Of a DNA stretch of 64,000 nucleotides, positions 3,917 to 53,708 are shown piece by piece (the first letter of the stretch is position 1; each line of letters opens with the position of its first letter). The translations under genes and the position numbers were made by a program. Below the pieces are notes generated by a model. It searched no databases, was not told the DNA's origin, and saw only the letters and a list, made by a program, of their open reading frames with translations. Source of the stretch: Squalus acanthias (lineage: Eukaryota); the NCBI GenBank assembly GCA_030390025.1, contig CM059432.1, positions 67,458,001-67,522,000 on the forward strand. The letters are read 5' to 3'.

Positions 3917-4868
3917 TGTAGGTCAGCGAGCACAGGGGTGATGGACTAACGGGACGTGGTGCGAGTTAGGACACGGGCAGCCGAGGTTTGGATGAGCCTC
4001 AAGTTTGCATAGGGTGGAATGTGGGAGGCCAGCCAGGAGTGCATTGGAATAGTCAAGTCTAGAGGTAACAAACGCATGGATGAGGATTTCAGCAGTGGAT
4101 GGGCTGAGGCAAGGGCGGAGATGGGCGATGTTATGGAGGTGGAAGTAGGTGGTCTTTGTTATGCTGCGGATATGTGGTCAGAAGCTCATTTCAGGGTCAA
4201 ATATGACACCAAGGTTGTGAACAGTGTGGTTCAGCCTCAGACAGATGTTTGGGAGAGGGATGAAGTCAATGGCTAGGGAACGGAGTTTGTGGCGGGGACT
4301 GAAAACAATGGCTTTCGGTTTTCCCAATATTTAATTGGAGAAAATATTTGCTCATCCAGAACTGTTTGTCGAACAAGCAGTCTACAATTTAGACACTGTG
4401 GAGTGGTAGAGAGAAGAAGTAGTGAGGTAGAGCTGGGTGTCGTCAGCATACATGTGGAAGCTGACATTGTGTTTTCGGATGATGTCGCCAAGGGGCAACA
4501 TGTAGATGAGAAATAGGAGGGGGCCAAGGATAGATCCTTGGGGGACACCAGAGGTAACGATGCGGGAGCGGGAAGAGAAGCCATTGCAGGTGATTCTCTG
4601 GTTACGATTAGATAGATAAGAATGGAACCAGGCGAGTGCAGTCCCACCCAGCTGGACGACGGTGGAGAGGCGTTGGAGAAGGATGGAGTGGTCAACCATG
4701 TCAAAGGCTGCAGACAAGTCAAGAAGGACGAGGAGGGATAGTTTACCTTTGTCACAGTCACAAAGGATGTCATTTGTGACTTTGATGAGAGCCGTTTCGG
4801 TACTGTGGCAAGGGCGGAAACCTGATTGGAGGGATTCAAACATGGAATTGCAGGAAAGATGGGCACGG
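3917..4868 (-). mobile_element. L2-clade LINE reverse transcriptase fragment
   Basis: QSGFRPCHSTETALIKV, LLDLSAAFDMVDH, GVPQGSILGP and YADDTQLY are L2-type RT motifs. Confidence 0.9.
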
Positions 4869-6125
4869 ATAAAGACCTCTATTAGGTCACCCCTCAGCCA
4901 TCTTTTTTCCAAGAGAAAAGAGATCCAGCCAGTTCATCCTTTCCTGATATGTATACCCTTGTATTTCTGGTATCATCCTTGTAAATCTTCTCTTCACCCT
5001 CTCCAGTGCCTCTATATTCTTTTTATAATATGGCGACCAGAACTGTACGCCGAACTCTAAGTGTGGTCTAACCAAGGTTCGAGACAGGTTTAGCATAACT
5101 TCCCTACTTTTCAATTCTATCCCTCTAGAAATTTACCCTAGTGCTTGGTTTGCTTTTTTATGGCCTTGCTAACCTGTGTCGCAACTTTTAGTGATTTGTG
5201 TATTTGTACTCCTACATCCCCTTGTTCCTCCACCCCACCTAGACTCGCGCCCTCCAAGTGATAAGTGACCTCCCTATTCTTCCTACCAAAATGTAATACC
5301 TCACATTTATCTGTGTTGAACTTCATTTGCCAATTATATGCCCATTCTGCAAGTTTATTAATGTCCTCCTGTAGCTTGTTGCAGTTCTCCTCAGTATTGA
5401 CTATCCCCCCCAATTTGGTGTCATCCGCAAATTTAGAAATTGTGTTTTTGAGTCCTAAGTCTAAATCGTTAATGTAAATTGTGAACAGCAGTTGTCCCAG
5501 AACTGATCCTTGTGGAGCACCACTACCCACCTTCTGCCACTGTGAATAGCTATCCTTTACTCCTACTGTCTGCTTTCTGTCCTGAAGCCAGCCAGCAATC
5601 CATTCTACTACTTGTCCCCTGACTCCACATTCTCTGACCTTGTTCATCAGTCTATTATGGGGTACCTTATCGAAGGCCTTTTGAAAATCCAGATAAATTA
5701 CATCTACTGCATTACCATTGTCTACTCTCTCTGTTACCTCTTCAAAAAATTCGATAAGGTTGGTCAAGCAAGATTTTCCCTTTTGAAATCCATGTTGACT
5801 ATTCATTATTATATTTTTGGTTTCTAGATGTTCTTCCATTTTCTCCTTTAGTAGGGATTCCATTATTTTTCCTACCACCGATGTTAAGCTGACTGGTCTA
5901 TAATTCCCTGAACATGTTCTATCCCCCTACCTAAATATCAGTATTACGTTAGCTATCCACCAGTCCTCTGGCACTACACCCTTTTTCTAACGAATTATTA
6001 AATATGCGTAGTAATGCCTCTGCTATCTCTTCCCTAGATTATTTTAAAATGCATGGATGCAATCCATCCGGACCAGGTGTTTTATCCTCTTTGAGTTTGA
6101 TTAATTTATTTAATATATCCCCTTT
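4869..6125 (-). mobile_element. CR1 LINE RT fragment
   Basis: ORF 5138-5878 with [19 protein letters not shown] and KCEVLHFG; ORF 4887-5114 with LVRPHLE. Confidence 0.9.
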
Positions 6126-9637: not shown

Positions 9638-10225
9638 CGTGTTGACTCACCTCCTGACTCCCCAAAGCCGTTCCGCCATCTACAAGGCACAAGTCAGGAC
9701 TGTGATGGAATGGTCTCCACTTGCCTGGATGAGTGCAGCTCCAACAACACTCAAGAAACTCAACACCATCCAGGACAAAGCAGCCCGCTTGATTGGCACC
9801 CCATCCACCACCTTAAACATTCACTCCCTCCACCACCGGCGTACCGTGGCTGCAGTGTGTACCATCTACAAGATGCACTGCAGCAACTCACCAAGGCTTC
9901 TTCAGCAGCACCTCCCAAACCCGCGATCTCTTTCACCTAGAAGGACAAGGGCAGCAGATGCATGGGAACACCACCACCTCCAATTTCCCCTCCAAGTCCC
10001 ACACCATCCTGACTTGGAAGTATATCACCGTTCATTCATCGTCGCTGGGTCAAAATCCTGGAACTCCCTCCCTAACAGCACTGTGGGTATACCTTCACCC
10101 CTCGGACTGCAGCAGTTCAAGAAGGTGGCTCACCACCACCTTCTCAAGAGCAATTAGGGATGGGCAATAAATGCTGGCCTTGCCAGCGATGCCCACATCG
10201 CAGAAATGAACGACTGAAAAAAAAA
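9638..10225 (+). mobile_element. 5'-truncated copy of the tRNA-headed LINE family (CR1/Zenon-like RT C-terminus)
   Basis: IYKAQVR..MEWSPLAWMSAAPTTL...SLHHRRTVAA; 3' UTR gcaattagggatgggcaataaatgctggcc plus poly(A). Matches 26365-26919. Confidence 0.9.
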
Positions 10226-10929: not shown

Positions 10930-11902
10930 TACCGAGATCCTGATTTAAATTTAATGCTGGTCAGCCGGGTTTCCCAGGGCTTGGGAAACTTGGCAGTGGA
11001 ATGGAGGCGGGAGCAGTTGGATCAAGCAGGTAAGTGCTTTTTATAGCAGTGCTTGTGGGACAGGAGGAGGGAGGAGCAGGAGTGCTCCCCCCGGCCTCTC
11101 AAGCAAGTCTTCTGCTGCTATTGGCCAACCTTCCAAACCCACAATCTCTCCCACCCGATTGGCGGTCTGACACCTCCCTTCTGCCCCAACAGTCCTTGGC
11201 TGCTGCCTTCTGTCACTGGTTTTCCTCCTGGCAGCTAGTCAGCCTGTCAGTCTGGCTGGCTGCCAAGCGGGAAACGGAATAACAACATTTTTTTTTTTAT
11301 TCGTTCATGTGATGTGGGAGTCACTGACAAGGCCAGCCTCGACCATCCCTAATTGCCCTAGAGAAGGTGGTGGTGAGCCGCCTTCTTGAACCGCTGCATT
11401 CCGTGTGGTGAAGGTATTCCCATCGTGCTGTTATACTTCTTTGTAGCGTTTTGGTACAACTGAGTGGCTTGCTCGGCCATTTCAGAGGGCAGTTAAGAGT
11501 CAACCACATTGCTGTGGGTCTGGAGTCACATAAAGGTCAGACCAGATAAGAATGACAGATTTCCTTCCCTAAAGGACCTCAGTGAACTAGATGGGTTTTA
11601 TGACAATCCAATAGTTTCATGGTCACCATTACTGACACTAGCTTTTTATTCCAGATTTATTTAATTAGCTGGATTTAAATTCCCCAGTTGCCGTAGTGGG
11701 ATTTGAACTCACGTCTCACCAGATCATTAGTCCAGTCCTCTGATTACTGGTCCAGTAACATAACCACTATGCTACCGTAATGAGGTCTTGCCGTTAGATT
11801 CGGCAACACCTCTCTGTTCCCCCCCACGATGGGCAGGAGAGGGGGTTTTCCCAGGTTTTTTTTGCTATAACTTTGGTGGATGACTGGTGAAACCCCGGCC
11901 AA
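10930..11902. mobile_element. Non-autonomous Harbinger-like element interrupted by a SINE
   Basis: Shares the block gggtttcccagggc..gggaaac..ggcag...ggagcaggagtg with 55500-55650 and, inverted, with 14400-14470. Ends in aaaccccggcc. Confidence 0.45.
11288..11778 (-). mobile_element. tRNA-derived SINE, internal-deletion derivative of the LINE at 23937-26919
   Basis: A box TAGCATAGTGG and B box GAGTTCAAATCCC. Body matches 23937-24235, including ATG GCC GAG CAA. Joins the LINE 3' end at ~11433 and ends in a poly(A) tail. Confidence 0.9.
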
Positions 11903-14745: not shown

Positions 14746-15683
14746 AGAAACATAGAAGCATAGAAGATAGGAGCAGGAGTAGGCCATTTGGCCCCTCGAG
14801 CCTGCTCCGCCATTCGATGAGATCATGGCTGATCATCCAAACTCAGTACCCTGTACCTGCCTTCTCCCCATATCCCTTGATACCTTTAGCTTTAAGAAAT
14901 ATATTTAACTCCTTCTTGAATATATTTACTGACTTGGCCTCAACTACCTTCTGTGGTAGAGAATTCCACAGGTTCACCACTCTCTGGGTGAAGAAATTCT
15001 TCCTCATTTCTGTCCTAAATGGCTTACCCCTTATCCTTAGATTATGACCCCTGGTTCTGGACACTCCGACCATCGGGAACATTCTTCCTGCATCTAGTTT
15101 GTCCAGACCTGCCAGAATTTTATATGTTTCGATGAGATCCCCTCTCATTCTTCTATACTCCAGCGAGTATAAGCCCAATCGACCCAATCTCTCCTCATAT
15201 GTCATTCCTGCCATCCCAGGTATCAGCCTTGTGAATCTTCGCTGAACTCCTTCCATGGCAAGAACATCCTTCCTCAGATAAGGTGACCAAAACTGCACAC
15301 AGTACTCAAGGTGTGGTCTCACCAAGGCCCTGTACAACTGCAGCAGGACATCCCTGTTCCTATACTCAAACCCTTTCGCTATGAAGGCCAACATACCATT
15401 TGCCTTCTTCACCGCCTGCTGCACCTGCATGCTTACCTTCAGCGACTGGTGTACAAGGACACCCAGGTCTCGTTGCACTTCCCCTTCTCCCAATCTATTG
15501 CCATTCAGATAATAGTCTGCCTTTCTGTTTTTGACACCAAAGTGGATAACCTCGCATTTATCCACGTTATATTGCATCTGCCACGCTTCTGCCCACTCAC
15601 CCAACCTGTCCAAATCATCCTGGAGTTTCTCAGTATCCTCCTCGGAGCACACACGCCCACCCAGCTTTGTGTGTCATCTGCAA
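14746..15683 (-). mobile_element. 5'-truncated young CR1 LINE with uninterrupted ORF2 C-terminus
   Basis: ORF 14843-15652 (269 aa) runs from just after the FADD region to the natural stop without a break. 3' tail (tatgcttc/tatgtttc) at ~14746-14765. Confidence 0.92.
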
Positions 15684-15899
15684 ATGGTGATTGTTAACCC
15701 CACTCAAGTCCATAGCACACCAACAAAACCTGGAAAGAAGGGGTTTTTGAGCAGACCTTTCAGCCCTGCAGTGGCTCAGGTAAGTGCTGTTAGACTATTT
15801 CTGGGTCCTCAGTGTTATCCTTTTTTTCTTTATTTCCCATTGGGGCTTTAGCTTCATGAGCCTTTGTGCTACTTTTTATTGTCCCAGATTTTGTTGTTG

Positions 15900-22675: not shown

Positions 22676-23823
22676 TTAGAAGTTGTGTCTTACGAGCAGT
22701 TCACAGACGGCCCTTGCAGTGGCAACATTGTGCGCCTCCCTCCCACGTTGGTGCTGCTGATCCTCTTCCTCCTCCTCTCCCTCTTCCTCCTCCTCCTCCT
22801 CAGGTGGTCCACCAATCCCTGGTGGCAATGGCTGGGTCCTCATGATTACAATGTTATGAAGCATGGAGCACACAACAATGAAAAGTGAGACTCGCTCGGG
22901 AGAGTACTGCAGGGCTCCTCCTGAGAGGTCCAGACACCGGAACCGTTGTTTCAAGACGCTGATAGTCTGCTCTATGAGGTTCCTGGTAGCGCTATGGCTC
23001 TTATTGTATTGCAGCTCGGCAGGGGTGCTGGGGTTACGGAGCGGTGTCATCAGCCAGGTGCAGAGTGGATAACCTTTGTCCCCGAGAAGCCATCCACGAG
23101 GTTGAAGTGGTGGTTGGAAGAGGTCTGTGACAGCAGTCTGGCGCAAGATAAAAGCAACATGGCTGCTGCCAGGATAGAGGGCATTGACGGCGAGGATGAG
23201 CTGTCTGTGGTTACAGACCAACTGTACATTCAGAGAGTGGAAGCCCTTGCGGTTTCGGAACACCTCTGCATTCTCATGAGCTGCCCACAATGCCACATGC
23301 GTGCTGTCAATGGCGCCCTGAACCATGGGGATGCCCGCTATCCTAGCAAAGCCACATGCGCATTCGTGCTATTTGCCCCGGGTCATGGGGAAAGAGATGT
23401 ACTGGCGTCTCCTTTTATTAAAAGCATTTGTCACCTCCCGGATGCAACAATGAACAGCGAACTGGGAGATATTCGCTATGTCCCAAGTTGAAGCCTGGAA
23501 GGAGCCACTGGCATAGAAATTCAGAGCCACCGTCACCTTCACTGCCACCGACAGAGATGTCCTGAGGCTGCAGATCTGGTTGCAGGAGGTGGCAGAGCTC
23601 AGTGACCACCTCCTGGCTGAAGCGGAGCCTTCTGAAACACTGCTCCTCAGACAAATGAATATAGGAGAATTGCTCCCGGAATACCCTGGGAGGGTAAGGT
23701 CTCCTGTGCAGAGGCCTGTTGGCCCTCCTTCCTCTGGCCACATTTGCCACTCTCTCTCTGCGCCTCTGCTGCCTCTGAAGGTGAAGCTGGAGGACGACGC
23801 CCCGAGTTAGTGCAACCCCAATA
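22676..23823 (-). pseudogene. Harbinger DDE transposase (HARBI1-like family), frameshifted
   Basis: VKVTVALNFYASGSFQ, AIDSTHV, NRKGFHSLNVQLVC, PGSSHVAFIL (D to V relative to PGSxHD), [24 protein letters not shown] and CSMLHN motifs, plus an acidic tail. Confidence 0.92.
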
Positions 23824-23936
23824 CAAGCTTCTAAATATGGTAAATATGAAGGTCAAATAAATATGAACCTCAAAAGTGGTGCTCACGAACCAAAACTCCT
23901 TAGGATAGCGTCAACTCTCTCCAGACATCTCTCAAC

Positions 23937-26919
23937 GGGAACGGTAGCATAGTGGTAATGTCACTGGACTAGGAATCCTGAGGCCGGGACTAATGATCCA
24001 GAGACATGAGTTCAAATCCCACCTAGGGAATTTAAATTCAATTAAATAAATCTGGAATAAAAAGCTAGTATCAGTAGTAGTGGTGACCATGAAATCCATC
24101 TGGTTTACTAATGTCCTTTAGGGAAGGAAATCTGCCATCCTTATCTGATCTGGCCTATATGTGATTCCAGACCCACAGCAATGTAGTTGACTCTTAACTG
24201 CCCACTGAAATGGCCGAGCAAACTGTTACAAGAAACAATAATAAGAATAAAACCAGATGGACCACCTGGCATCGACCTCGGCACCGGACACGGCAACGGT
24301 ATACTCAGCCCAGTCGACCCTGCAAAGTCCTCCTCACCAACATCTGGGGACTTGTGCCAAATTGGGAGTCCCACAGACTAGTCATACTCACAGAATCATA
24401 CCTTTCAGCCAATGTCCCAAACTCATGCACCAGCAGGACAGACCCACCAGGGTTGGTGGCACAGTGATATACAATCAGGAAGGAGTGGCCCTGGCAGTCC
24501 TCAACATTGACTCTGGACCCCATGAAGTCTCATGGCTTCAGGTCAAGCATGGGCAAGGAAACCTCCTGCTGATTACCACCTACCACCCTCCCTCAGCTGA
24601 TGAATCAGTACTCCTCCATGTTGAACACCACTTGGAAAAGTAGCAAGTGCACAGAATGTACTCTGGGCGCGGGACTTCAATGTCCATCACCATGAGTGGC
24701 TTGGTAGCACCACTGCTGGTCGAGTCCTGAAGGACCCAGCTGCAAGTCTGGGCCTGCGACAGGTGGTGAGAGAACCAACATGAGGGAAAAACCTACTTGA
24801 CCTCATCCTCACCAATCTACCTGTGCACGACAGCATTGGTAGCAGTGGACAACGCACAGTCCTTGTGGAGATGAAGTCCCGTCCTCGCATTGAGAATACC
24901 CTCCATCGTGTTGTGTGGCACTACCACCGTGCTAAATGGGATAGATTCAGAACAGATCTAGCAGCTCAAAATTAGGCATCCATGAGGTGCTGTGGGCCAG
25001 CAGCAGAAGTGTATTCCACCATGGCCTGGCATATCCCTCACACCATCAAGCCAGGGGACCAACCCTGGTTCAATAAACTGTCCAAGAGCAGCACCAGGCA
25101 TATCTAAAAATGAGGTGCCAATCTGGGGAAGCTGCAACACATGCATGCTAAAAAGCGGAGGCAGCATGATATAGATAGGGCTAAGTGATCCCACAATCAA
25201 CGGAGCAGATCAAAGCTATCCAGTTGTGAATGGTGGTGGACAATTAAACAACTAACGGGAGGAGGAGGCTCCATAAATATCCCCATCCTCAATGATGGTG
25301 GAGCCCAGCACGTGAGTGCAAAAGACAAGGCTGAAGCGTTTTCAGCCAGAAGTGCCGAGTGGATGACCTCCTGAGGTCTCCACCATCATAGAAGCCAATC
25401 TTCAGCCAATTCGATTCACTCCACGTGATATCAAGAAACGGCTGAGCGCAGTGAATACAGCAAAGGCTATGGGCCCCGACAACGTGCTGAAGACTTGTGC
25501 TCCAGAACTAGCTGCACCTCTAGCCAAATTGTTGCAGTACAGCTACAACACTGGCATCTATCTGACAATGTGGAAAACTGCCCAGGTATATCCTGTCCAC
25601 AAAAAGCAGGACAAATCCAACCCGGCCAATTACCGCCCCATCATTCTACCCTCAATCATCAGAAAAGTGATGGAAGGTGTCATTGACAGTGCTATCAAGC
25701 GGCACCTACTCACTGATGCCCAGTTTGGGTTCTTGCCAAGACCACTCGGCTCCCGACCTCATTACAGCCTTGGTCCAAACATATACAAAGGAGCTGAATT
25801 CCTGAGGTGAGAGTGACTGCCCTTGACCGAGTGTGGTATCAAGGAGCCCTAGTAAAACTAAAGTCAATGGGAATCGGGGGGGTAAACGCTCCACTGGCTG
25901 GAGTCATACCTAGCACAAAAGAAGATGGTTGTGATGGTTGAAGGTCAATCATCACAGCCCCAGGACATCGCTGCAGGAGTTCCTCAGGGCAGTGTCCTAG
26001 GCCGAACGAGCTTCATCAATGACCTTCCCTCCAACATAAGGTCAGAAATGAGGATGTTCGCTGATGACTGCACAGTGTTCAGCGCCATTCACAACTCCTC
26101 AAATAATGAAGCAGTCCAGGCCCGCATGCAACAAGACTTGGACGCTTGGGCTGATAAGTGGCAGGTAACATTCACGCCAGGCAATGACTATCTCCAACAA
26201 GCGAGAGTCTAACCACCTCCCCTTGACATTTAACGGCATTACCATCGCCGAATACCCCACCATCAACATCCTGGGGGTCACCATTGACCAGAAACTTAAC
26301 TGGACCAGCCACATAAATACTGTGGCAACAAGAGCAGGTCAGAGGCTAGGTATTCTGCGGCGAGTGTCTCACCTCCTGACTCCCCAAAGCCTTTCTACCA
26401 TCTACAAGGCACAAGCAAGGAGTGTGATGGAATACTCACCACTTGCCTGGATGAGTGCAGCTCCAACAACACTCAAGAAGCTCGACACCATCCAGGACAA
26501 AGCAGCCCGCTTGATTGGCACCCCATCCACCACCTTAAGCATTCACTCCCTCCACCACTGGTGTACCGTGGCTGCAGTGTGTACCATCTACAAGATGCAC
26601 TGCAGCAACTCGCCAAGGCTTCTTCTGCAGCCCCTCCCAAACCCGCGACCTCTTCCACCTAGTAGGGCAAGGGTAGCAGACGCATGGGAACACCACCTCC
26701 TCCAAGTTCCCCTCCAAGTCACACACCATCCTGACTTAGAAGTATATCGCCGATCCTTCATCGTCGCTGGGTCAAAATCCTGGAACTCCCTACCTAACAG
26801 CACTGTGTGGGAGTACCTTCACCACACGGACTGCAGCGGTTCAAGAAGGCGGCTCACCACCATCTTCTCAAAGGCAATTAGGGATGGGCAATAAATGCTG
26901 GCCTTGCCAGCAACGCCCA
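23937..26919 (+). mobile_element. Apparently full-length single-ORF LINE (APE + RT, CR1/Zenon-like) with tRNA-derived 5' head
   Basis: tRNA-like head at 23937-24025 and ATG at 24210. APE motifs LLTNIWGL, ILTESYL, GGTVIY, GDFNVHH and LLDLILTN. RT motifs KAMGPD, NYRPI, GVPQGSVLG and FADD. 3' UTR shared with the SINEs. Many small deletions and stops. Confidence 0.88.
23945..24020 (+). promoter_or_regulatory. RNA Pol III type-2 internal promoter (A and B boxes)
   Basis: A box TAGCATAGTGG at 23945-23955 and B box GAGTTCAAATCCC at 24008-24020. Confidence 0.75.
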
Positions 26920-27931
26920 TGTGGGATCGCAAATTAGGCCTGTGAAACGAAACCTATATCCCCTAGTCTTTAAATATATATTAACCAAGGCTGTAGGGCA
27001 GTAATATTAGAAATCATGTTTAAAGGATAGTTAATTCACTTATAGAGAGATATCAACACGTACATATAGCTTTTAGATAGTTGTAAAGCATGATGGACTA
27101 TTTGGTTCATTATATTAACCCTTTTAAATAATACTGAAAGAAGTGTTGCTCCCTGCAGCCAGATTGTCGGATTCATAGCTTACTTTCTAGGCATTTTAGA
27201 AGGTCATTATCAGTGCTACAGAAGCAGTGTTTATACGTAGTTGGCCTTTGGAAGAGATAAGGGAAACTGAACTGTACAGGGAGTCGACCATTTCTCGCTT
27301 GGTCTCAAACACCTTATCTCCCTTTGGAGCGGACCTTGTTTATCATAATAAGCTTCTCTCGAGAATTAACGAAGTATTGGTTAGATACAACAATATGGGA
27401 AAGGAAAGATAAGCGTGGTACGACCTTGTTTAAGAGACAAGATGGAGTCTGGTAGACCTCGCTCCCAGAGACTAGATGAAGGCCCCATGTATAACAACTA
27501 TGTGTTATGTTTAATGTCACAGAACATTTCAGGGCGGCTCCCAACATTGAGTGACTGATCATTAGCCAATAAGGGAGCAATGGTAGCGAAGCTGTTTGTA
27601 TGTGTACGCCCACTTTTGTAACCTGTGGGTGTTGCCTATCGAAAGGTATATCAATGCTTGTATGTAGTTTTTCCTTTGAGAGTTGGGTTCGAGTCTGAGG
27701 AGATCAACCTCTCTCCCTTTGTGCACAAAGCCTTCTGGCTAGTTTCTAATAAACTTTTACTTTGTCTTCAGTTCCGTCTCCGTCTGGTTTTGCTCCAAAA
27801 TTCGATGTAACAGTAAGGCTCGTTGGTGAGTAATTGGGATGCCGGGAGCGGGGGTGACCTCTTAGGACTTTAATTAGTCCCGGTGGACTCGAATTGGGCC
27901 CCTGTGAAAAAGTCCCAATTCTGATCTAACA
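26920..27931 (+). mobile_element. 5' LTR of an ERV-like element (~1.0 kb)
   Basis: TG...CA ends, TATA-like element at ~27645 and AATAAA at ~27748. Followed 2 bp later by a PBS. Confidence 0.8.
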
Positions 27932-27933
27932 GT

Positions 27934-27951
27934 TGGTGCCAGAAGTGGGAT
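27934..27951 (+). other. Primer binding site complementary to tRNA-Leu 3' end
   Basis: TGGTGCCAGAAGTGGGAT versus the tRNA-Leu complement TGGTGTCAGAAGTGGGAT (1 mismatch), immediately after the LTR. Confidence 0.8.
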
Positions 27952-28799
27952 ACTGGACTGGAATGTTGGGTGCGGTGGTTGAGGGTCACTCCTTAAGAGA
28001 ATTGTTGGAGTTGGGCTTTTCCTGGACTCCCTGTTGCCAATCCCTCGTGGCGAGTCGCGCTCGCAAAATAAGCACCAGCCAGGCACAGTATTAAATTATC
28101 CACGTAGTTAAATTACTCCTCACGGAGACTCACGGGTTGACGGAATTGACTAGACCTAACTGTGTGTATTCCGATTTAAAGTATAAGTGTTTGTCATTGT
28201 TCTGCTTGAGTGTTTGTCATTGTTGAGAGTCACGGGTGATCGACACGGACAAGGGTGGTTGGTTGTCTATCTCAAACACCTAGCCTGAGCCTGAATTAAG
28301 AGGACGTAGTCCCACGTGATGGCCAGGATCAAGTAGGTGTAGGGAACTTCGAACACACCACAGGATCGTGATCCCGTGACGAGTAAGAGGGAAAAAAAAG
28401 ATAGAGCATAAGGTGATACGTTTGTGCCGATTAAAGTATAAGATTAGACTAAAGTAAGTTAAAGTATAAGATAAAGCATAAGGATATACGTGATTATAGG
28501 TATGAGTGACGAGGGGAAACCCCTTTCACTGGACGTTCCGGCTATGGCCACCAGTGTCACTGTTGTTAAGCGGGTCCAAGAGGCTAATCTGAAATACCAG
28601 AGTGAGATGTACCAACTGCGGTCGCTTCGGACACACTCGGGCTGCTTGTTTCAAAAAGGGTGGGGGAAGGGAGGGACAGGGACCCCGAAAACTTGGATCA
28701 CAGGGACCACAAAGGGGGGTGCTGTCTGACTGAGAGTTGGAAGGACTACGGGCCCTCCTCCTCCCGCCACCAGCTCCTCACCACGATTAGGATACCCCG

Positions 28800-29198
28800 G
28801 TCTCCTCTGTCGGAGGACCAGGGGCCACCCGCCCGTGTCTAAATGTACTGTTAGGAGGCCGGCAGTATTGTGCTCTTATAGACACGGGAGCCTCGGTGTC
28901 GATAACCGACTCGAAATTCCCTACAATAGATCAAACCATCCAAGTAAGCGGGGTTAGTGGAGAAAGTGTGATCCTCCATCGGAGTGTTCCGATTCCATTG
29001 CAATTATCCCCAGAAAGCCGAACCTGGTGGGTCACTCTTTGGGTAGGTCCCATCAGTGAGGGCCTGATTTTAGGTATGGATGTCTTGCACCAGATAGAGG
29101 CAAACCTGCTCTTAAGTGACCACCTATTGGAAATAGTAGGACCAGATGGTGGGAGATTTCCCTTCCTGGAAAATCAGGCCAATAAATTTCAGGGTTAA
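28800..29198 (+). pseudogene. pro: Retroviral aspartic protease
   Basis: In frame upstream of ORF 28896: RPCLNVLLGGRQYCALIDTGASVS, then VSGVSG (flap) and ILGMDVL. Confidence 0.85.
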
Positions 29199-29249
29199 AT
29201 ATCTACAGGAGGCACAGGATGATAAAAGAATGGAGGGAGTTTGGAAAAT

Positions 29250-29420
29250 ACCACCTAGTGTGGGACAGTGGGTGATGGTTCAGCGACCGGTTCGAGGTAC
29301 GTTTGAGCCACGGTGGGATGGACCTTTCCAGATCCTCCTTAGTACAGGAACCTCCGTTTGCCTGCAAGAAAAATTAGATGTAAGGTGGAGACACTGGAGC
29401 CAGACTAAGCCAGTGATGGC
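29250..29420 (+). pseudogene. Retroviral integrase C-terminal (GPY/F) fragment
   Basis: VGQWVMVQRPVRGTFEPRWDGPFQILLSTGTSV...WRHWSQTKP. Confidence 0.8.
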
Positions 29421-29553
29421 GCCCGGGGAAGGAATTTCCCCGACCCTCAGGACCCCTAGGGCTGAGGAAAAAAAAACCCTGCAGACTGGATTCTGTCATT
29501 TTCAGTGTACTGTCACTTTAAAAGCCTGTGCTTTCCTTCTCAAGGTCACAGGC

Positions 29554-29557
<4 letters not shown>

Positions 29558-29585
<28 letters not shown>
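29558..29585. repeat. (CT)n microsatellite
   Basis: Visible directly in the sequence. Confidence 0.9.
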
Positions 29586-29588
<3 letters not shown>

Positions 29589-29892
29589 GAAGAGTGTTGT
29601 TGCTACATAAAAAAAATCTGATTGAAGTGAATGGAATGTATGTGCCTGTCAGCTGAGGCAATGAATTATCAAATGATTATTAATAATGCGAATAACTTTA
29701 TTTTCCTCCAAGTGTTTGATTAGGACCAAGTCCGGAAAATTACGTAGAGTCCTCGAGTTGTTATTTGCCTTGTGTTTTTCTTACAGACGTTCCACCCGGC
29801 CTCAGTACTGTTACCACTTCTGGGGATACCGACCCTCCAACAACGCAAAGTATTCTCCCCTTCGACTTGAAGTGGTATTATATTAAACACTA

Positions 29893-30256
29893 TGGCATGG
29901 CCAGCATTTATTGCCCAACCCTAATTGCCCTCGAGAAGGTGGTGGTGAGCTACCATTTCAGAGGGCAGTTAAGAGTCAATCATATTGTGGGTTTTGAGTC
30001 ACATATAGGCCAGACTGGGTAAGGACGGCAGATTTCCTTCCCTAAAGGACATCAGTGAACCAGATGGGTTTTTATGACAATCCGGTAGTTTCATGGTCAC
30101 CATTATTGATAATAGCTTTTTATTCCAAATTTTTTTAATTAACTGAATTTAAATTCTCCAGCTGGTATGGTGAGATTTAAACTCACATCTCTGGATAATT
30201 AGTCTAAACCTCTGGATTACTAGTCCAGTAACATAACCACTATGCTACCGTTCCCC
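29893..30256 (-). mobile_element. tRNA-derived SINE, second internal-deletion derivative of the tRNA-headed LINE
   Basis: Same head and body. Junction ctgaaatgg|tagctcaccaccacc at ~29952 differs from the 11433 junction. Confidence 0.88.
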
Positions 30257-30656: not shown

Positions 30657-31587
30657 TTTTTTTTTAATTCGTTTATGGGATGTGGGCATCGCTGGCAGGG
30701 CCAGCATTTATTGGCCATCCCTAATTGCCCTTGAGAAGGTGGTGGTGAGCCACCTTCTTGCCCCACAGTGCTGTTAGGGAGGGAGTTCCAGGATTTTTCC
30801 CCAGTGACGATGAAGGATCGGCGCTATACTTCTAAGTCAGGATGGTGTGTGACTTGGAGGGGAACTTGGAGGTGGTGGTGTTCCCATGCGTCTGCTGCGC
30901 TTGTCCTTCTAGGTGGAAGAGGTTGCGGGTTTGGGAGGGGCAGCAGAAGAAGCCTTAGCGCGTTGCTGTAGTGCATCTTGTAGATGGTACACACTGCAGC
31001 CACGGTGCGCCGGTGGTGGAGAGAATGAATGTTTAAGGTAGTGGATGGGCTGCCAATCAAGTGGGCTGCTTTGTCCTGGATGGTGTCGAGCTTCTTGAGT
31101 GTTGTTGGAGCTGCACTCATCCAGGCAAGTGGAGAGTATTCCATCACAATCCTTACTTGTGCCTTGTAGATGGTGGAAAAGCTTTGAGGAGTCAGGAGGT
31201 GAGACACTCGCCGCAGAATACCTAGCCTCTGACCTGCTCTTGTTGCCACAGTATTTATGTGGCTGGTCCAGTTAAGTTTCTGGTTAATGGTGACCCCCAG
31301 GATGTTGATAGTGGGAGATTCAGCGATGGTAATGCCATTGAATGTCAAGGGGCAGTGGTTAGACTCTCGCTTGTTGGAGATAGTCATTGCCTGGCACTTC
31401 TGTGGCGCGAATGTTACCTGCCACTTATCAGCCCAAGCCTGAACGTCATCCAGGTCTTGTTACATGCGGGCATGGACTGCTTCGTTATCTGAGGAGTTGT
31501 GAATGGTGCTGAACACTGTGCAGTCATCAGCAAACATCCCCATTTCTGACCTTATGTTGGAGGGAAGGTCATTGATGAAGCAGCTGA
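30657..31587 (-). mobile_element. 5'-truncated copy of the tRNA-headed LINE family
   Basis: ORF 30824-31387 is nearly identical to 26184-26894. The 3' UTR and poly(A) are at 30657-30760. Confidence 0.9.
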
Positions 31588-38984: not shown

Positions 38985-40102
38985 TCGCAATAATCAGGGC
39001 ATCCCTGGCATCCCGTGCAGCAACATGAGCTGCTGGTGGTGCATTGCCCTCATCACCTTCCTCTTCCTCGTCTTCCTCTGGAGAGGCTTAGAGCCTTAGT
39101 CCTCCTGCTGGTCCAAAACTCATTGCTGGGCAATGTTGTACAGAGTTCAGCACACCACGACCATTCTGGAGACCCTGGTTGTGGGTACTGAAGGGGGCCT
39201 CCAGATCTGTCCAGGCACCTGAAGCGCATCCTTCAGCATTCCGATAGCTTGTTTGATGACACATCTGGTGGTGATATGGCATTAATTGCAGCATTCTTGG
39301 GCCTCATTCTTTGGGTTTCTGAGAGGTGTCATCAGCCACGTTTTCAGTGGGTATCCCTTGTCTCCCAGCAGCCAGCTGGCAACTCTGCTTCCAGGTGCGA
39401 AGAAGTCAGGGACTGCTGCAGGACGAAAGCTGCCCAGGAAGCTTGCACATACCTGCATAAAGATTTTTTTGTGGTTGCACACCAGCTGCACATAGATGGA
39501 GTGGAAACTCCTGGCTGATCTGTGGGTGCCCTAATTGCCACATGTGTGCAGTCGATAACACCCTGCACCTGTGGGAAGCCAACCAGAGGTGCAAACCTGA
39601 GCACCCGCTCATTCTGACTGGCATTATCGCAGTCAGAGTTGACATAATTGGCGACCCTGGCGAACAAGCCAGCAGTCACCTGTCTTATGCATTTGTGGGC
39701 AGCCAACTGGGAGATCCTGCAAATGTCTCTGGCAGAGCCCTGGAAGGAGCCAGAAGCAAAATTGTTGAGGGTGGTGGTGACTTTGGCAGCTACTGGTAAA
39801 GCATGACCACCAGGTCCAGCTGGCAGCAGATCTTGTTCCAGCAGACTGCAAATGTCTGCCAGCACCTGACGTGTCACCCTGAGCTTCCTAACACACTGCT
39901 GTTCAGACATATCAAGGAAGCTTATCCTTTGCCTTTTTACCCTGTGTGCCGGGTATGGCCTCATGTGAGGTGCACCTCTCTGCTGATCCCTTCTCTCTTG
40001 TGGAGCTACAGGTCTGTGACCAGCAGATTGTTGCTTGTGCTGCCGCTGGTCATCTTGGTCCTCATCTGAGGCCCAACCTAAGGCAGCATAAGCGGCACCC
40101 AT
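38985..40102 (-). pseudogene. Harbinger DDE transposase, with deletions and frameshifts
   Basis: MGAAYAAL...[32 protein letters not shown] and [21 protein letters not shown]. Confidence 0.9.
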
Positions 40103-41104
40103 CCTGATCTGGTAGATTAGACCTCCAAAGTGCAGATGAAACCTCCAAAATGTAGATCAGACCTCCAAAGTGTAGAAAGTAACCTCAGCAAAAGTACTGT
40201 GAACAAACCCTTACCCACTAGAGGCAAGAAAGCAGCTGTGAGTACTGAGGATTTATTGGCATATTTCCCCGATATTGATTCAGCCCCTCAATTACCATTG
40301 TGTACTCGCCTTGCTTTCACTGGCAAGGTCCAGGAAGCCCGGCAAACCTGTGGACCCGACATTAAGCACAATAATTTAGGTCAATATCGCGCTAATTGAG
40401 CGATTTACATATGTTGATTGGCAACCCGCCTCTCCTGAGGGGGTTGCATGCACGCAGCCGAATGCGCTCCAGTCAAATGTGGAAGTCGGCGGGTTGGAGC
40501 CGGCTTCCTGACATTGCCCCTTTTAACCCCCACCCGCACCCAAACCCACGCGCTCTTCCAGGTTAAAATTCCCCCCCACCCGCACCCAAACCCACGCGCT
40601 CTTCCAGGTTAAAATTCCCCCCCCCCCCACCCCAGGCTTTTTCGAGAACATGTTTTAAACAAATCCTTTCCGTCTTATAGTTTTGTCTCTATTAAAAGCA
40701 AAAGCAATGTAAAAACATATCAATATTCTTATATAGGTGGCTAGAGTTGGAAGTTCCCATTACCATAATATCCTGAAGACAGAGTTGTGGATGTAGCTCA
40801 TTCTTTGCAATGCTGAGTTTGTACCCAGTGTTTTCAATTAGCAGCATAACTCCAGTAAGTTCCACATAGGGCCTATTCACTGAAAGATCTGGGCATTGCT
40901 GAGTCAAGCACTGCCTTTATGGTGAAAATGTAAAGGGCTACATTGATGAGTCATTGATGAAAACTGCTATATTTTAAACAAAGCTGAATTTTCCTAAAAT
41001 ACTAAAATAATAGCCTTTCCAAGATAGTAATTTAAAAATAAACTTACATGTCATTTAATAGCAACCACTAAAAAATGAAAAATGGGCATGTTGTGACAAA
41101 ATGT

Positions 41105-44399: not shown

Positions 44400-46357
44400 T
44401 GTAAAGGAATAGCCATATTTCAGAAAAATACACCATCCTATGAACAGAATTCTGACTTTATTAAAACATGACAAACTGGGGTTAAAAATCTAAAAGCCTC
44501 AACGACACAAGCTGTGAATACAGGCTTCTGAGATAAGATGAGTCACAAAGCTGTAAACATCATACAAGCTTTTGAAATGGGAATTGGTTGTAAATACTAA
44601 GACAATGGCCTCATTGAAACAGAGGGTTGGAGGTTCCAAGAAGTCTGCAGTTTGGAACCAACACAATAGCTATACCCAGTTTAAAGTTCGAACAGAAACA
44701 CAGAACATTAAAAAACCATGGGCTGGATTTTCAATGACCCGTGGAGTCGGGTTTGGAGGCGTGTGGGGGGTTAAAGTTGCGGGGTCGGGGGTCCCGACCC
44801 CATCCTGACTCCATCCCGCCTCCACGTAATTTTGACAAAATCAATCGCGGGGTTCCAGACTCCGTCCCGCCTCCAAGGGGCGGGAGAGGCCATTAAAGCC
44901 CTAAATTGGCTCTGTAATGCCATTTTGAAACGTTTAACTACTTTAACCCTTTTCCCACGTGCTGCTCATTTTGCATCCAGGTCCACTCACAGCAAAAGCC
45001 AGGCAGGTCCACTCACAGCAAAGGCCAAGCAATCTCTGAGACCAGGCAGTCTCTGCAATGATGACATCATCAGAGGCGACTTTCAGACTCAAACCACTAA
45101 TTGGTTCATGGGTTCCCACATGCTGGAACTCAATTGCCCAATTAAGTGAAAATTGCATCATTCATCCACATTAATCTGGAGTCAGGGGGGCAACACGAAA
45201 TGCGGATCACACGACCCCAACCCGACCCCAAGACAAAATCCAGCCCCATGTGTCTTTGTAAAAGTAACATCAAATGAAAGACAAGAAACATAAGTTTGTA
45301 ATACAACCAATTGAAGTAGCTAAGAAATGCATAGAACACCCTAGTGAAGTGTTTTTAATTTACATATTGTAAAAGGTACAAACAGAAGACTTTGTAAATA
45401 TTACATCAATAGATGCACCAAGCAATCACATTGTTTATGTGTTAAACTTGGAACACAAGGAGCCAGGAGTCTGTGTTACAACCAGCAGAGGTGATTTAAA
45501 AATTGAATGGAAGACCTTTGTAAGAATGGCATCAAATAAAAAACTACTGTCATATTGTTTTTTATGATAAGATTTGAACACCTAAACAGCAGACAGGATT
45601 CTGAAAGTTAACAGCTAAACTGACAATAAGATTAGAAAGAAGTCAACAGAAAATATGACTGGAGATAATTAGCTTACATCAGCAGAAAACTTCAAAGAAT
45701 ATACCACTGCAAAAAGAGTATAAAATATGGAGCTTTCAGATAGGAAGTCAGAAGTCGCTGGAAGGGTCAGAGCGATTCTCGCCTTCAGAACCACTCTGCA
45801 GGCCTACAACTCTTTGAGTCTCGGGTAATCAAGGTAGTTGATTTTGGTGGATATTCTGGATTATAAATAAGTACGAAGTGTGGAAATGTAACGAAGTTAA
45901 GATTTGAGAATAAGGATCTCTGATAAGAAATGTAAGCTATTTGTATTTTGAACTGTTAAAGTTGCGATTGAATCAACAACTGTTAGCTGCATTTCGGTTC
46001 TTTAATAAATCTATATATTTTTAGAATTGTCTCAGAGTAATTCTGTATCAAACTCGCAAACTCAATTTCTGTACACTCTTTTGTGAGGAGTTGCAGAATT
46101 CTGGGGGGGGGGGTTTTCTGGACCCTCATAATATCTGGAAGGTTACAGTCTAGTTAAACTTATTAAAAGTGCTATCTGGAGGACAGTAACATCTTCAAGC
46201 CGTTCCTTTCCTTTAGGGTGAGGTAGTCTGACCTTTAGACCCAATTAAGCGTCTCTAGGATTCGGCTATCTCTAACTTTAGTTGAAGGTGAACGTCTGGG
46301 GAATACGCCTGATCTGGGGTAGCCTGAAAAGGGCTAGGATTAGTAATTATCCCTTCA
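44400..46357 (+). mobile_element. Solo LTR, family B (~1.43 kb without the MITE)
   Basis: TG...CA ends (TGTAAAGG...CCCTTCA). TSD AGAC at 44396-44399 and 46358-46361. TATAAAA at ~45719 and AATAAA at ~46004. Confidence 0.8.
44720..45246 (+). mobile_element. Harbinger MITE
   Basis: TIR GGGCTGGATTTT / AAAATCCAGCCC and TSD CAT. Same family as 62314-62959 and 53709-54480. Confidence 0.9.
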
Positions 46358-47221
46358 AGACTTCTTTACTCCTGTACTCAAATCCTCTTGTAATGAAGGC
46401 CAGCATACCATTTGCCTTCCTAATGGCTTGCTGCACCTGCACATTCGCTTTCAGTGACTCATGTACAAGGACACCCAGGTACCTTTGAGCATCTGCATTC
46501 CCCAATCGTTCACCATTTAGGAAATACTCTGCCTTTCTGTTTTTTCTACCAAAGTGAATAACTTCACACTTATCCACATTATAATCCATCTGCCATGTTC
46601 TCGCCCACTTACTGAGCCTGTCGAGATCCCCTTGAAGCCTCTTCACATCCTCTTCGCAACTGACACTGCCACCTAGCTTTGTGTCATCAGCAAATTTGGA
46701 AATGTTACATTTAGTCCCCGCATCCAAATAATTGATATAGATTGTGAATAGCTGGGGCCCAAGCACCAATCTTTGCGGTACCCCACTAGTCACAGCTTGC
46801 CATCCTGAAAAAGACCCGTTTATCCCTACTCTTTGTTTTCTGTCTGTTAACCAATTCTCAATCCATGCTAGTATATTACCCCCAATTCCATGTGCCCTAA
46901 TTTTGTTCACCAACCTCTTGTGTGGGACCTTATCGGAGGCCTTCTGAAAATCCAAATACACCACATCTACTGGTTCCCCTTTGTCTACTCCACTAGTTAC
47001 ATCCTCAAAGAACTCCAATAGGTTTGTCAAAAACAGGACTTCCCTTTCATAAATCCATGTTGACTCTGCCCAATCTTACTATTAGTTTCTAAGTGCCCAG
47101 TTATTACATCCTTTATAATAGATTCCAGCATTTTCCCAACTACTGATGTGAGGCTAACAGGTCTACATCCTAAACTCTTTCTGTGAAGAAAAAACTAGAT
47201 CAATAATCCTGAAATGTGACC

Positions 47222-48670
47222 TAGGAACATAAGTAGGCCATTCAGCCCCTTGAGCATGTTCCACCATTCAAGTAGATCATGACTGATCTGTATCTTAACT
47301 CCATTTACCAGCCTTAGTTCCATAACCCTTAATACCCTTGCCTAACAAAAAATCTATCAATCTGAGTTTTTCAAATTTTCAATTGACCTAACCTCAACAG
47401 CTTTTTGGGGGAAGAGAGCTCTAAATTTTTACTAGCATTTTTGTGAAGAAGTGCTTTCTGACATCACCCGTGAACGACCTAGCTCTTATTTTAAGGTTAT
47501 GCCCTGTTGTTCTGGACTCTCAGCAAAGGAAATAGTTTCTGTCTATCTACCCTATCATCTCAAACACCTTAATTAGATCACCCCTCAATCTTCTATACTC
47601 AAGGGAATACAAGCCTAGTCTATGCAACCGGTCCTCATAATTTAACCCTTTTAGCCCCAGTATCCATCTGATGAATCTATGCTGCACCCCCTCCAAGGCC
47701 AATAGATCCTTCCTGAAATGCGGTGCCCAGAACTGAACACAATACTCCAGATGGGATCTAACCAGAGCTCTGTACAGCTGTAACATAACTTCCACCCCTT
47801 TGTATTCCAGCCCTCGAGATAAATGCCAACATTCCATTAGCCTTTTTTTAAGTATTCTTTGTACCTTTCCACTAGCTTTTAGTGATTTCTGTACTTGCAC
47901 CCTTAAATCCCTCTGCTTATCCACAGTTCCTAGCTTCTCACCATTTAGTAAATACACTGATCTATCTTTCTTAGGTACAAAATGGATGACCTCACACTTT
48001 CCCACATTGACCTCCTCTACCACAATTTTGTCCACTCACTTAATCTATCAATGTTCCCTTGCAACTTTCAGCTCCCATGTACACTATTTACTGTACCACC
48101 TAACTTAGTGTCATCAGCAAACTTAGAAATACGGCTCTCTATTCCTTCAGCCAAGTCATATATAAAATATAGTTAAAAGCTGTGGCCCTAGTATAGATCC
48201 CTGGGGGTCACCACTAGTCACATCCTGCCAATTTGAGTATTTACCTATTATCCCTACTCTCTGTCTCCTACCCCCTAACCAATTTCCAATCCAAGCCAAT
48301 AGGTTGACTCCAATTCCATGCGCTCTCATTTTTGTTAACAATCTCTTATGTGGAACCTTGTTGAATGCCCTCTGGAATACCATATAAATAATATACAAGG
48401 ACATTCCCTTATCTACCACGTTGGTTACCTCTTCAAAAAAATCAACCTGGTTCACCTTACCCTTTACAAATCCATGCTAGCTCTCTCTGATCAGCTCATA
48501 TTTGTCCAAATGCTCAGTCATTTTGCCCCAAATAACAGACTCTAGTAACTTCCCCACAATTGACGTTAGACCAATAGACCTTTCATTTCCTAGTTTATCT
48601 CTCTTCCCTTTCTTAAATAGTGGAGTGATATTGTCAATTTTCCAATCCAAGGGGACAATTTCTGAAACGA
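47222..48670 (-). mobile_element. Older CR1 LINE fragment
   Basis: Frameshifted ORFs 48477-48677, 48156-48455 and 47547-48035 with CR1 RT motifs. 3' UTR at ~47225. Confidence 0.88.
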
Positions 48671-51879: not shown

Positions 51880-53408
51880 ATGAATTCTATAGATTCTGGA
51901 ATGGTTCCTGCAGATTGGAGGATAGCAAATTTAACCCCGCTATTTAAGAAAGGAGGGAGAGAGAAAACGGGGAACTACAGACCTGTTAGCCTCACATCAG
52001 TAGTTGGGAAAATGCTGGAATCTATTATAAAGGATGCAATAACTGGATACTTAGAAACGTTTCTAAGTGCCCAGTTATTGCATCCTTTATAATAATAGCA
52101 AGATTGGGCAGAGTCAACATGGATTTATAAAAGGGAAATCCTGTTTAACAAACCTATTGGAGTTCTTTGAGATGTAACTAGTGGAGTAGACAAAGGAGAA
52201 CCGGTAGATGTGGTGTATTTGGATTTTCAGAAGGCCTTCGATAAGGTCCCACACAAGAGGTTGGTGAACAAAATTAGGGCACATGGACTTGGGGGTAATA
52301 TACTAGCATGGATTGAGAATTGGTTAACAGACAGAAAACAAAGAGTAGGGATAAACGGGTCTTTTTTGGGATGGCAGGCTGTGACTAGTGGGGTACCGCA
52401 AGGATCGGTGATTGGGCCCCAGCTATTCACAATCTATATCAATGATTTGGATGCGGGGACTAAATGTAACATTTCCAAATTTGCTGATGACACAAAGCTA
52501 GGTGGCAGTGTCAGTTGCGAAGAGGATGTGAAGAGGCTTCAAGGGGATCTCGACAGGCTCAGTGAGTGGACGAGAACATGGCAGATGGAATATAATGTGG
52601 ATAAATGTGAAGTTATCCACTTTGGTAGAAAAAACAGAAAGGCAGAGTATTTCCTAAATGGTGAAAGATTGGGGAATGTTGATGCTCAAAGGGGCCTGGG
52701 TGTCCTTGTACATGAGTCACTGAAAGTGAATGTGTAGGTGCAGCAAGCCATTAGGAAGGCAAATGGTATGCTGGCCTTCATTACAAGAGGATTTGAGTAC
52801 AGGATTAAAGAAGTCTTACTCCAATTATATAGGGCCTTGGTGAGACCACACCTGGAGTACTGTGTACAATTTTGGTCTCCTTACCTAAGGAAGGATATAC
52901 TTGCCATAGAGGGAGTGCAACGAAGGTTCACGAGATTGATTCCTGGGATGGCGGGACTGTCGCATGAGAAGAGATTGAGTAAACTAAGCCTGTATTCTCT
53001 TGAATTCAGAAGAATGAGAGGGGATCTCATTGAAGCATCCAAAATTATTACAGGGCTTGATAGGGTGAATGCTGGGAAAATGTTTCCCTTGGCTGGGGAG
53101 TCTAGAACCAGGGGCCACAGCCTCAGGATAAAGGGTCGGCCATTCAGGACTGAGATGAGAAGAAATTTCTTCACACAGAGGGTGGTGAATCTTTGGAATT
53201 CTCTACCCCAGAGGGCTGTGGAGGCTCAGTAATTGGGTATATTCAAAACAGAAGTCGATAGATTTCTGACTAGTAAGGGCATCAAGGGATATGGCAATAG
53301 GGCTGGTGAATGGAGTTGAGGCAGAAGATCAGCCATGATCTCACTGAATGGCGGAGTAGGCTCGAAGGGCTGAATGGCCTACTCCTGCTCCGATTTATTA
53401 TGTTCTTA
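51880..53408 (+). mobile_element. 5'-truncated CR1 LINE, few lesions
   Basis: ORFs 51880-52092, 52210-52737 and 52738-53232 together give RT and the C-terminus; 3' UTR and tail follow. Confidence 0.92.
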
Positions 53409-53708
53409 TTAAATAAAGGAATTGATCTGGGTTCTGCTAGCTTTTCTTCCACGTTATTTATATCCTGGATGTGGTGGGCACTTTTTAGGAACATTGGAAC
53501 ATAGGAGAGGAGTGGACCATCAGCTCCTCGAGCCTGGGTCCACCATTCTATTGGATCTGATCTGTATCTAAACTCCATTTACCTACATTTGCTTCCTTTC
53601 CCTTGATACCCTTACCAAGCAAAAATATAGATCACCATCCTGAAAATGTTAATTCACTCAGTATTCGCAGCCTTTTGGCGGAGAGAGTTCTAGATTTCCA
53701 CACTCATT

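Follow-up and report, generated by a model that had tools for sequence, protein, structure and literature searches.

We analysed 64,000 nucleotides of the Squalus acanthias genome (GenBank assembly GCA_030390025.1, contig CM059432.1, positions 67,458,001 to 67,522,000 of the forward strand; hereafter, the window). At 23937-26919, on the forward strand, lies a retrotransposon in which a transfer RNA (tRNA)-like head and a body of about 190 nt are followed by a leader and by apurinic/apyrimidinic endonuclease (APE) and reverse transcriptase (RT) motifs scattered over several frames (Table 1). The original prediction took it for an autonomous long interspersed element (LINE) without ORF1, headed by an RNA polymerase III (Pol III) promoter of the kind found in short interspersed elements (SINEs). 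The promoter is as it described: the A and B boxes lie where it placed them, and head, body and open reading frame (ORF) follow one another with no A-tail or target-site duplication (TSD) between them. The window copy itself is dead and holds no intact ORF. Compared with the majority-filled columns of a family alignment it carries 29 indels, 11 of them frame-breaking, and has 310 nt deleted; it also lacks the last ~20 nt and the A-tail, because a long terminal repeat (LTR)-type element starts at 26920.

The head begins GGGAAC. The Rfam model RF00005 matches it at only 20 bits (E 0.17) and ARAGORN called no tRNA on it, the weak score being due to a duplication of about 21 nt in the anticodon arm. 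The head of copy L085, which is free of the duplication, scores 32.2 bits (E 6e-5), above the gathering score of 29, and L092 likewise lacks the duplication. In L131 the same 21-nt unit, lying some 500 nt ahead of the body motif, has grown to about 18 tandem repeats. We tentatively label the body Deu-like; the resemblance fits the descriptions given in PMC5499810.

The joining of a tRNA head to a LINE is a family-wide architecture and not a chance event. We searched the 3.7-Gb genome with a 301-nt query spanning the body/ORF junction, which gave 6,767 candidates. All 40 matches that were scored cover the junction (39 extend to query position 293-301, one to 265), and it is thus not unique to this locus. 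From the same genome we fetched 20 junction matches and 40 of the 150 matches to a protein query from the RT-linker region (20 chosen for their long frames and 20 taken from high in the ranking). Many of these copies, on many contigs, are colinear with the element along its full 3.1-3.3 kb; full-length copies begin at the same GGGAACGG, next to flanks that are unrelated, and end in an A-rich tail. A sample drawn independently of the head consists of the first 30 among 2,796 sites identical to a 32-nt endonuclease-start motif, and head or body sequence lies upstream in every case: 16 copies start at reference position 1-8 (one with an insertion of ~950 nt) and one at position 29, 11 are truncated within the body, and two have body sequence in the flank past a break in the BLAST alignment. 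An alternative 5′ region, be it another 5′ untranslated region (UTR) or an ORF1, occurs in none of these 30 unselected copies. An 874-amino-acid frame in L081 was examined as a further 5′ end and rejected, as it is a tandem repeat fused to a truncated copy.

The family is abundant, with thousands of copies, a fixed 3′ end, a simple tail and 5′-truncated members. In 7 of the 11 truncated copies of the unselected sample the truncation points cluster within the body, at reference 261-262 (L172, L175 and L199) and 193-204 (L189, L190, L196 and L197); position 261 falls within the 3′ arm of a predicted hairpin and is perhaps a site at which the RT stalls. The TSDs expected to flank head and tail did not appear: in 14 copies the longest match was 0-3 nt, with no excess over a mismatched-flank control, and L050 is the single case with a TSD, of 6 nt. 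Absence of TSDs is common in L2-like elements. Contigs of four sequencing runs, under four organism labels, cover head, junction and ORF at 85% likeness, with a bridging contig for X3 only; these contigs are uninformative on expression, strand and start. Among the sequencing runs listed as containing the element, none was an RNA run. A Heptranchias gene model for an aldo-keto reductase (P0002) includes, in frame, about 215 residues of the LINE ORF at 85% identity, either an exonisation or an annotation error.

A column-by-column count over 21 aligned copies yields a family frame of 2,922 majority-filled columns, equal to 973 codons and a stop, with no internal stop as the commonest codon. The frame opens after a conserved TAA, 36 codons before the CKVLL motif, and closes at a TAG some 55 nt ahead of the A-tail; Pfam places the domains APE (PF03372/PF14529) and RT (PF00078) in it, in that order. 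A family-wide APE-RT frame exists as foreseen, but it does not start at the 24210 ATG. The original prediction was also right to place APE, RT and a LINE tail reaching 26919 within about 3 kb; the 3′ UTR takes up only ~55 nt of this, as the ORF runs to 26879-26881. The longest natural frames are 693 codons, or 926 with one stop. ORF1 is absent: the endonuclease begins only ~430 nt from the 5′ end, and stops interrupt each of the three frames in this interval. This absence, predicted as a peculiarity, is real and is no special trait: the closest full-length relative, L201, likewise shows no frame longer than 113 codons in the 750 nt upstream.

Selection on the frame was assessed by comparing non-CpG variants private to one copy with those shared by three or more. 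The ratio of non-synonymous to synonymous polymorphism (pN/pS) is 0.75 for private variants and 0.33 for shared ones (28 synonymous, 30 non-synonymous and 0 stop; Fisher p 0.003), about 30 C-terminal codons having been read in the shifted frame of L088. By region, on small counts, the shared-variant ratio is 0.28 in the endonuclease, 0.25 in the RT, 0.07 in the C-terminus and 1.1 in the leader. Because the shared variants are under purifying selection, we infer that the source elements used this protein.

The start of translation may be less conventional. The ATG of the 24210 type is present in 42 of 45 copies and, in the window, is in frame with CKVLLTNIWGL (TGC at 24321), as had been noted; as the start codon of the family it was rejected. 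A TAG stands two codons on in 24 of 41 copies, 32 of 40 have a stop six codons beyond that point, and the ATG is open and in frame in only 3 of 42, each time by a deletion. It is open in the window copy because an 18-nt deletion took out the in-frame TAA. A +1-frame ATG at codon -27, from which a frameshift would lead into the ORF, was also rejected, since it reads ATA in 22 of 49 copies. The first column in which ATG is the commonest codon lies 250 codons after CKVLL, beyond the endonuclease. As the family alignment holds no conserved in-frame ATG before the endonuclease, translation initiation was likely independent of AUG.

Vertebrate Pol III terminates at runs of four or more T, so a 3.3-kb RNA made by this polymerase must lack such runs (T4). 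In the sense strand of 21 copies no T4 site is common to more than two copies, and 15 A4 sites are common to at least five; 14 of the 21 copies are free of T4, against about 4.3 expected per copy by base shuffling (last 30 nt excluded). Within the ORF, T4 density is 0.0 per kb in 13 copies versus 2.49 and 2.62 per kb in two sets of ten LINEs from the same genome, which we take to be CR1-type and L2-type from their motifs. Runs of three or more T (T3+) are depleted in the family at z -2.7 to -3.4 against base shuffles (controls -1.2 to +1.5) and at -2.4 to -2.6 against synonymous shuffles (controls -0.3 to +0.8), and depletion beyond z -2.5 is seen for T runs only, not for runs of A, C or G. 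Headless relatives served as a further control. Of 80 related metagenome loci, 22 were measured (the four closest and 18 long ones); they carry 1.15-10.4 T4 per kb and are not depleted in T3 (z -1.4 to +1.8). No B box was found upstream of these 22, among which L201-L204 had only 0-750 nt of upstream sequence, and Rfam found no tRNA in 15 relative loci. Phenylalanine makes up 1.7% of the protein in the family and 3.1% in L201. This avoidance of T runs, a sequence signature and thus indirect, suggests that the LINE was likely transcribed by Pol III.

On balance, we think it probable that the element in the window is one decayed member of a LINE family, 3.3 kb long with a single APE-RT ORF, that begins with a tRNA-derived SINE head followed by the SINE body and was likely transcribed by Pol III and likely translated without an AUG. 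The prediction of an autonomous LINE with a SINE-type head thus stands, for a multi-copy and once-autonomous family. In such an element, TFIIIC would bind the A and B boxes and Pol III would initiate at the GGG of the head, cross 3.3 kb free of internal T4 and terminate at a T run at or past the tail. The uncapped RNA would be translated, independently of cap and AUG, starting in the leader downstream of the conserved TAA, perhaps with help from a structured body; R2 offers an analogy. The APE-RT would then copy its own RNA by target-primed reverse transcription, leaving full-length and 5′-truncated copies with an A-tail and little or no TSD, and the same enzyme would mobilise the short SINEs that consist of head and tail. 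In an L1/Alu assay, Pol III-made retrotransposon RNAs need no ORF1p (PMC2666806), which speaks for this reading.

Several observations weigh against it. We saw no intact young copy; the copies lie 2.8-6.1% from the column yardstick. The linker shows no constraint (shared-variant pN/pS 1.16, on 15 variants). The start codon was not found, and the sole near-cognate candidate, an ACG at codon -33, is unsupported as a universal start because 14 of 46 copies have ACA there. Head and body fold no better than shuffles (z -0.6 to -1.6, no significant score), leaving a role of the body resembling that of an internal ribosome entry site (IRES) unsupported. Against dinucleotide shuffles T3+ depletion reaches only z -0.9 to -1.7, so the T-run signal is in part one of low T and TT content, possibly of another cause. 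The probability of having no T4 is 0.15 under the family's own codon usage and falls to 0.005-0.01 only with CR1 or L2 usage; the copies being one family, the result amounts to one trial. SINEs, moreover, span 100-700 bp, a length ascribed to weak Pol III processivity (PMC10886601).

Alternatively, the family may have made two transcripts, a Pol III RNA copied into insertions and a capped RNA polymerase II (Pol II) read-through RNA of the same source loci, translated by reinitiation after an upstream ORF at the 24210-type ATG. T-run avoidance and the precise 5′ end would then be explained with no need to translate uncapped RNA; the conserved ATG does open an upstream ORF of 2 or 8 codons ending 36 codons before the endonuclease, and reinitiation has been described for ORF2 of L1 and SART1 (PMC2881922). 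The conservation of this ATG need not concern translation, however, because it sits in a body that non-coding SINEs also keep. Reinitiation would still require a non-AUG start, and selection on the ORF along the copying lineage is simplest if the copied RNA is the translated one; we regard the two-transcript scheme as unlikely. More unlikely in our judgement is an ordinary Pol II LINE that captured a SINE as its 5′ UTR, with vestigial boxes and a compositional shortage of T runs. LINEs often replace their promoters, and those characterised use Pol II (PMC2881922); an AATAAA lies ~40 nt before the A-tail, the T content of 20% is low, and the T4 deficit is weak against the own-codon and dinucleotide nulls just given. 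Against such a LINE, the point where the tRNA-like head begins is also the 5′ end of the family, the boxes are kept in the majority of LINE-type heads (Table 1), T runs alone are depleted beyond z -2.5, and all 22 measured headless relatives and both Pol II controls retain T4.

The lack of a conserved start codon and of an intact copy would also suit a giant non-autonomous SINE, one containing LINE sequence and mobilised in trans by a conventional LINE whose 5′ end differs. No such 5′ end turned up in the unselected sample, the frame is open over 973 codon columns, and its shared variants show purifying selection and no shared non-CpG stop; we consider this reading improbable. A chance adjacency, or a one-off SINE/LINE recombination at the window locus, has in its favour only the density of both repeat types in the window, and is refuted by the junction in every scored match, the colinear copies on many contigs and the heads and bodies of the unselected copies.

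Table 1. Features of the window that belong to, interrupt or resemble the tRNA-headed LINE
Feature	Coordinates	Strand	Evidence or remark
tRNA-derived head, family 5′ end	23937..24027	+	Includes ~21-nt anticodon-arm duplication; sharp common 5′ boundary, unrelated flanks in full-length copies
Pol III A box, TAGCATAGTGG	23945..23955	+	Sequence; motif in 39/44 LINE-type heads
Pol III B box, GAGTTCAAATCCC	24008..24020	+	Sequence; motif in 35/44 LINE-type heads
SINE-type body, presumably Deu-domain-like	24028..24221	+	Common to short SINE copies, including those in the window
ATG, not the family start codon	24210..24212	+	Within stem of predicted hairpin (predicted in L128; region z -0.9 to -1.0)
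Leader of ~36 codons, from conserved in-frame TAA (deleted in window copy) to endonuclease	24222..24320	+	Without conserved ATG
APE endonuclease domain, broken in window copy, end approximate	24321..24880	+	PF03372 and PF14529 on copies L082 and L088
Reverse transcriptase domain, broken, limits approximate	25400..26300	+	FADD at 26057-26068; PF00078 on L082 and L088
Stop codon (TAG) of the single ORF (…HHHLLKGN*)	26879..26881	+	Identical C-terminus in natural copies
Short 3′ UTR with AATAAA at 26890-26895	26882..26919	+	Common to SINE tails; ends before A-tail
Later LTR-type (retrovirus-like) insertion into the LINE tail, far end approximate	26920..29800	+	Not part of the LINE; TG start at break
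5′-truncated copy of the same LINE with A-tail	9643..10225	+	92% identical; C-terminal frame intact
5′-truncated copy of the same LINE with A-tail	30657..31581	-	88% identical
Short SINE-type relative: head, body and ~25 nt of leader joined to last ~140 nt of LINE	11287..11778	-	Window comparison
Short SINE-type relative, different junction to tail	29893..30255	-	Window comparison

The LTR-type element that interrupts the LINE tail has an LTR-like start of about 1 kb, a site near 27932 resembling a primer-binding site, and fragments of a retroviral protease (PF00077) and an integrase C-terminus (PF18697); no second LTR for it was found in the window. Decay of all copies of the LINE (for example at 24022-26175 of the window) proceeds mainly by deletions of 5-30 nt, several of which recur at the same short direct repeats in different copies. 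In the tails of L117, L119 and L045 the T run just before the A-tail, ~35-40 nt past AATAAA, is 4-9 long, and it is 1-3 long in most others; a variable T run in this position resembles polyadenylated Pol III SINEs (PMC8466645). Elsewhere in the window, a Harbinger-type transposase remnant at 22676-23852 (reverse strand; PF13359) has the LINE directly beyond it, and a second at 39344-40156 (reverse strand) has no Pfam match. Fragments of CR1-type and L2-type LINEs at 46347-48444, 51883-53409, 14754-15685 and 4382-4933 served as controls.

Short SINE-type relatives occur well beyond the window. A 33-nt body motif occurs without mismatch at 6,923 sites. Of the first 30 (three of these loci are also in the APE-start sample), 14 continue into the ORF, one is a LINE with an internal deletion and 15 skip to the LINE tail. 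The short copies have several junctions, some retaining 10-30 nt of LINE leader, which fits later internal deletion, and some SINE forms were probably made in this way. By layout, the short head-and-tail copies are like SacSINE1 as described.

In RT trees, which include no named Repbase references, the family groups with invertebrate proteins, including lancelet P0027, and apart from the CR1-type and L2-type LINEs of the same genome, a grouping that would set it apart from the classical CR1 and L2 clades. An initial scan of metagenomes that used the protein of the element as query gave no match, and a search of the PDB returned only L1 ORF2p and R2. L201 is 41% identical over a span of ~3.3 kb and has a methionine exactly at the family's cysteine of CKVLL, seven T4 runs and no tRNA match; comparison of its 5′ region with the head and leader at the DNA level gave no significant match. 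A tree of head and body sequences from 44 LINE and 16 SINE copies, built without the SINE L147 and without L033 (a near-duplicate of L031), has only 3 of 57 branches well supported and intermingles the two labels (9 changes), favouring no direction of origin. Most SINE heads share their set of alleles with a single LINE subgroup. Deu SINEs are known to pair their body with tRNA or 5S heads and with the tails of several LINEs (PMC3747384; PMC4824008). Because L201 shows no head in the sequence available and has a methionine, because of the RT placement, and because Deu SINEs combine varied heads and tails, capture of the head by a LINE already without ORF1 is favoured. We lean modestly towards an origin in which a LINE with a single ORF acquired its head and body from its own Deu-type SINE and lost its old 5′ UTR and start codon.

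Non-LTR retrotransposons are usually divided into coding LINEs transcribed by Pol II and short, non-coding SINEs transcribed by Pol III (PMC10886601, PMC5786205). If our reading is true, a selected APE-RT frame under a SINE promoter, in thousands of copies, breaks this division and provides a natural multi-kilobase Pol III mRNA. Like a SINE2/DeuSINE, the element has a tRNA head with A and B boxes and no internal sense-strand terminator, but at 3.1-3.3 kb and with a selected frame it is neither short nor non-coding, as its short relatives are. Like an autonomous APE-type LINE, it has an APE-RT ORF, the typical 3′ end and truncations, and purifying selection; ORF1, which is usual though not universal, and TSDs are lacking. 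We see the family as a variant of the LINE kind, with a fair chance that it forms a new functional class. For the fullest version of the proposal we would give an even chance: an autonomous protein-coding retrotransposon that works as a natural 3.3-kb Pol III mRNA, translated free of cap and AUG and purged of T runs down to its choice of codons and amino acids, would be a missing link between SINEs and LINEs, with the Deu-type body as its initiation element. The family makes two questions testable: what conserved SINE bodies do, as the body here immediately precedes an ORF with no AUG, and whether a LINE that already bears the head can give rise to SINEs by simple internal deletion.

A literature search that left out Repbase, Dfam and most subscription journals found no published description of a tRNA-headed coding LINE. 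Single-ORF LINEs of the CR1 group are known, such as UnaL2/ZfL2-2. The invertebrate members compared here (related to lancelet protein P0027 and locus L201) resemble the present family in an APE-RT of ~940 amino acids and in their branch of the RT tree, and L201 also in having no ORF1 seen upstream; in contrast, L201 has an in-frame methionine at the start of the endonuclease, an (AAT)n tail and an ordinary density of T runs, and lacks a tRNA head. R2 is not known to have an AUG start. Its endonuclease is restriction-like, it inserts site-specifically and it lacks a promoter, whereas the present LINE has an APE, is dispersed and carries an internal Pol III-type promoter. Both have one ORF, no conventional start and an RNA that would lack a cap, R2 being a Pol I co-transcript with a proposed IRES (PMC2881922).

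Small-RNA-derived Pol III promoters on retroelements other than SINEs are also described for Cassandra, Helenus and Ajax (TRIMp3; PMC10886601), but these are non-coding LTR elements of 0.3-1.3 kb, and the present family is a coding, non-LTR element of 3.3 kb. Bipartite SINEs derived from RTE and Vingi (Kojima 2018, PMC5786205) share with our short copies the property that the SINE resembles its LINE minus the middle. There, however, the LINE is taken to be transcribed by Pol II and the small-RNA head belongs only to the non-coding derivative, whereas here head and body stand on the coding element. The same Repbase-wide comparison of SINEs and LINEs reports 5′ homology for RTE and Vingi only, and states that no sequence resembling the conserved SINE bodies had been found to then (PMC5786205). 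The closest likeness in layout is to SacSINE1, SacSINE1-CM and LmeSINE1, tRNA-headed DeuSINEs of sharks, chimaera and coelacanth (tail donor L2-2_CM or a CR1-4_DR-like LINE; PMC5499810, PMC3747384), which combine a tRNA head, a conserved body and a tail common to a CR1-group LINE; the tail of SacSINE1-type SINEs is held in common with L2-2_CM (PMC5499810). As far as the available description of those systems goes, homology between SINE and LINE is confined to the tail (PMC5499810), whereas in the family described here the LINE carries the whole head and body as well.

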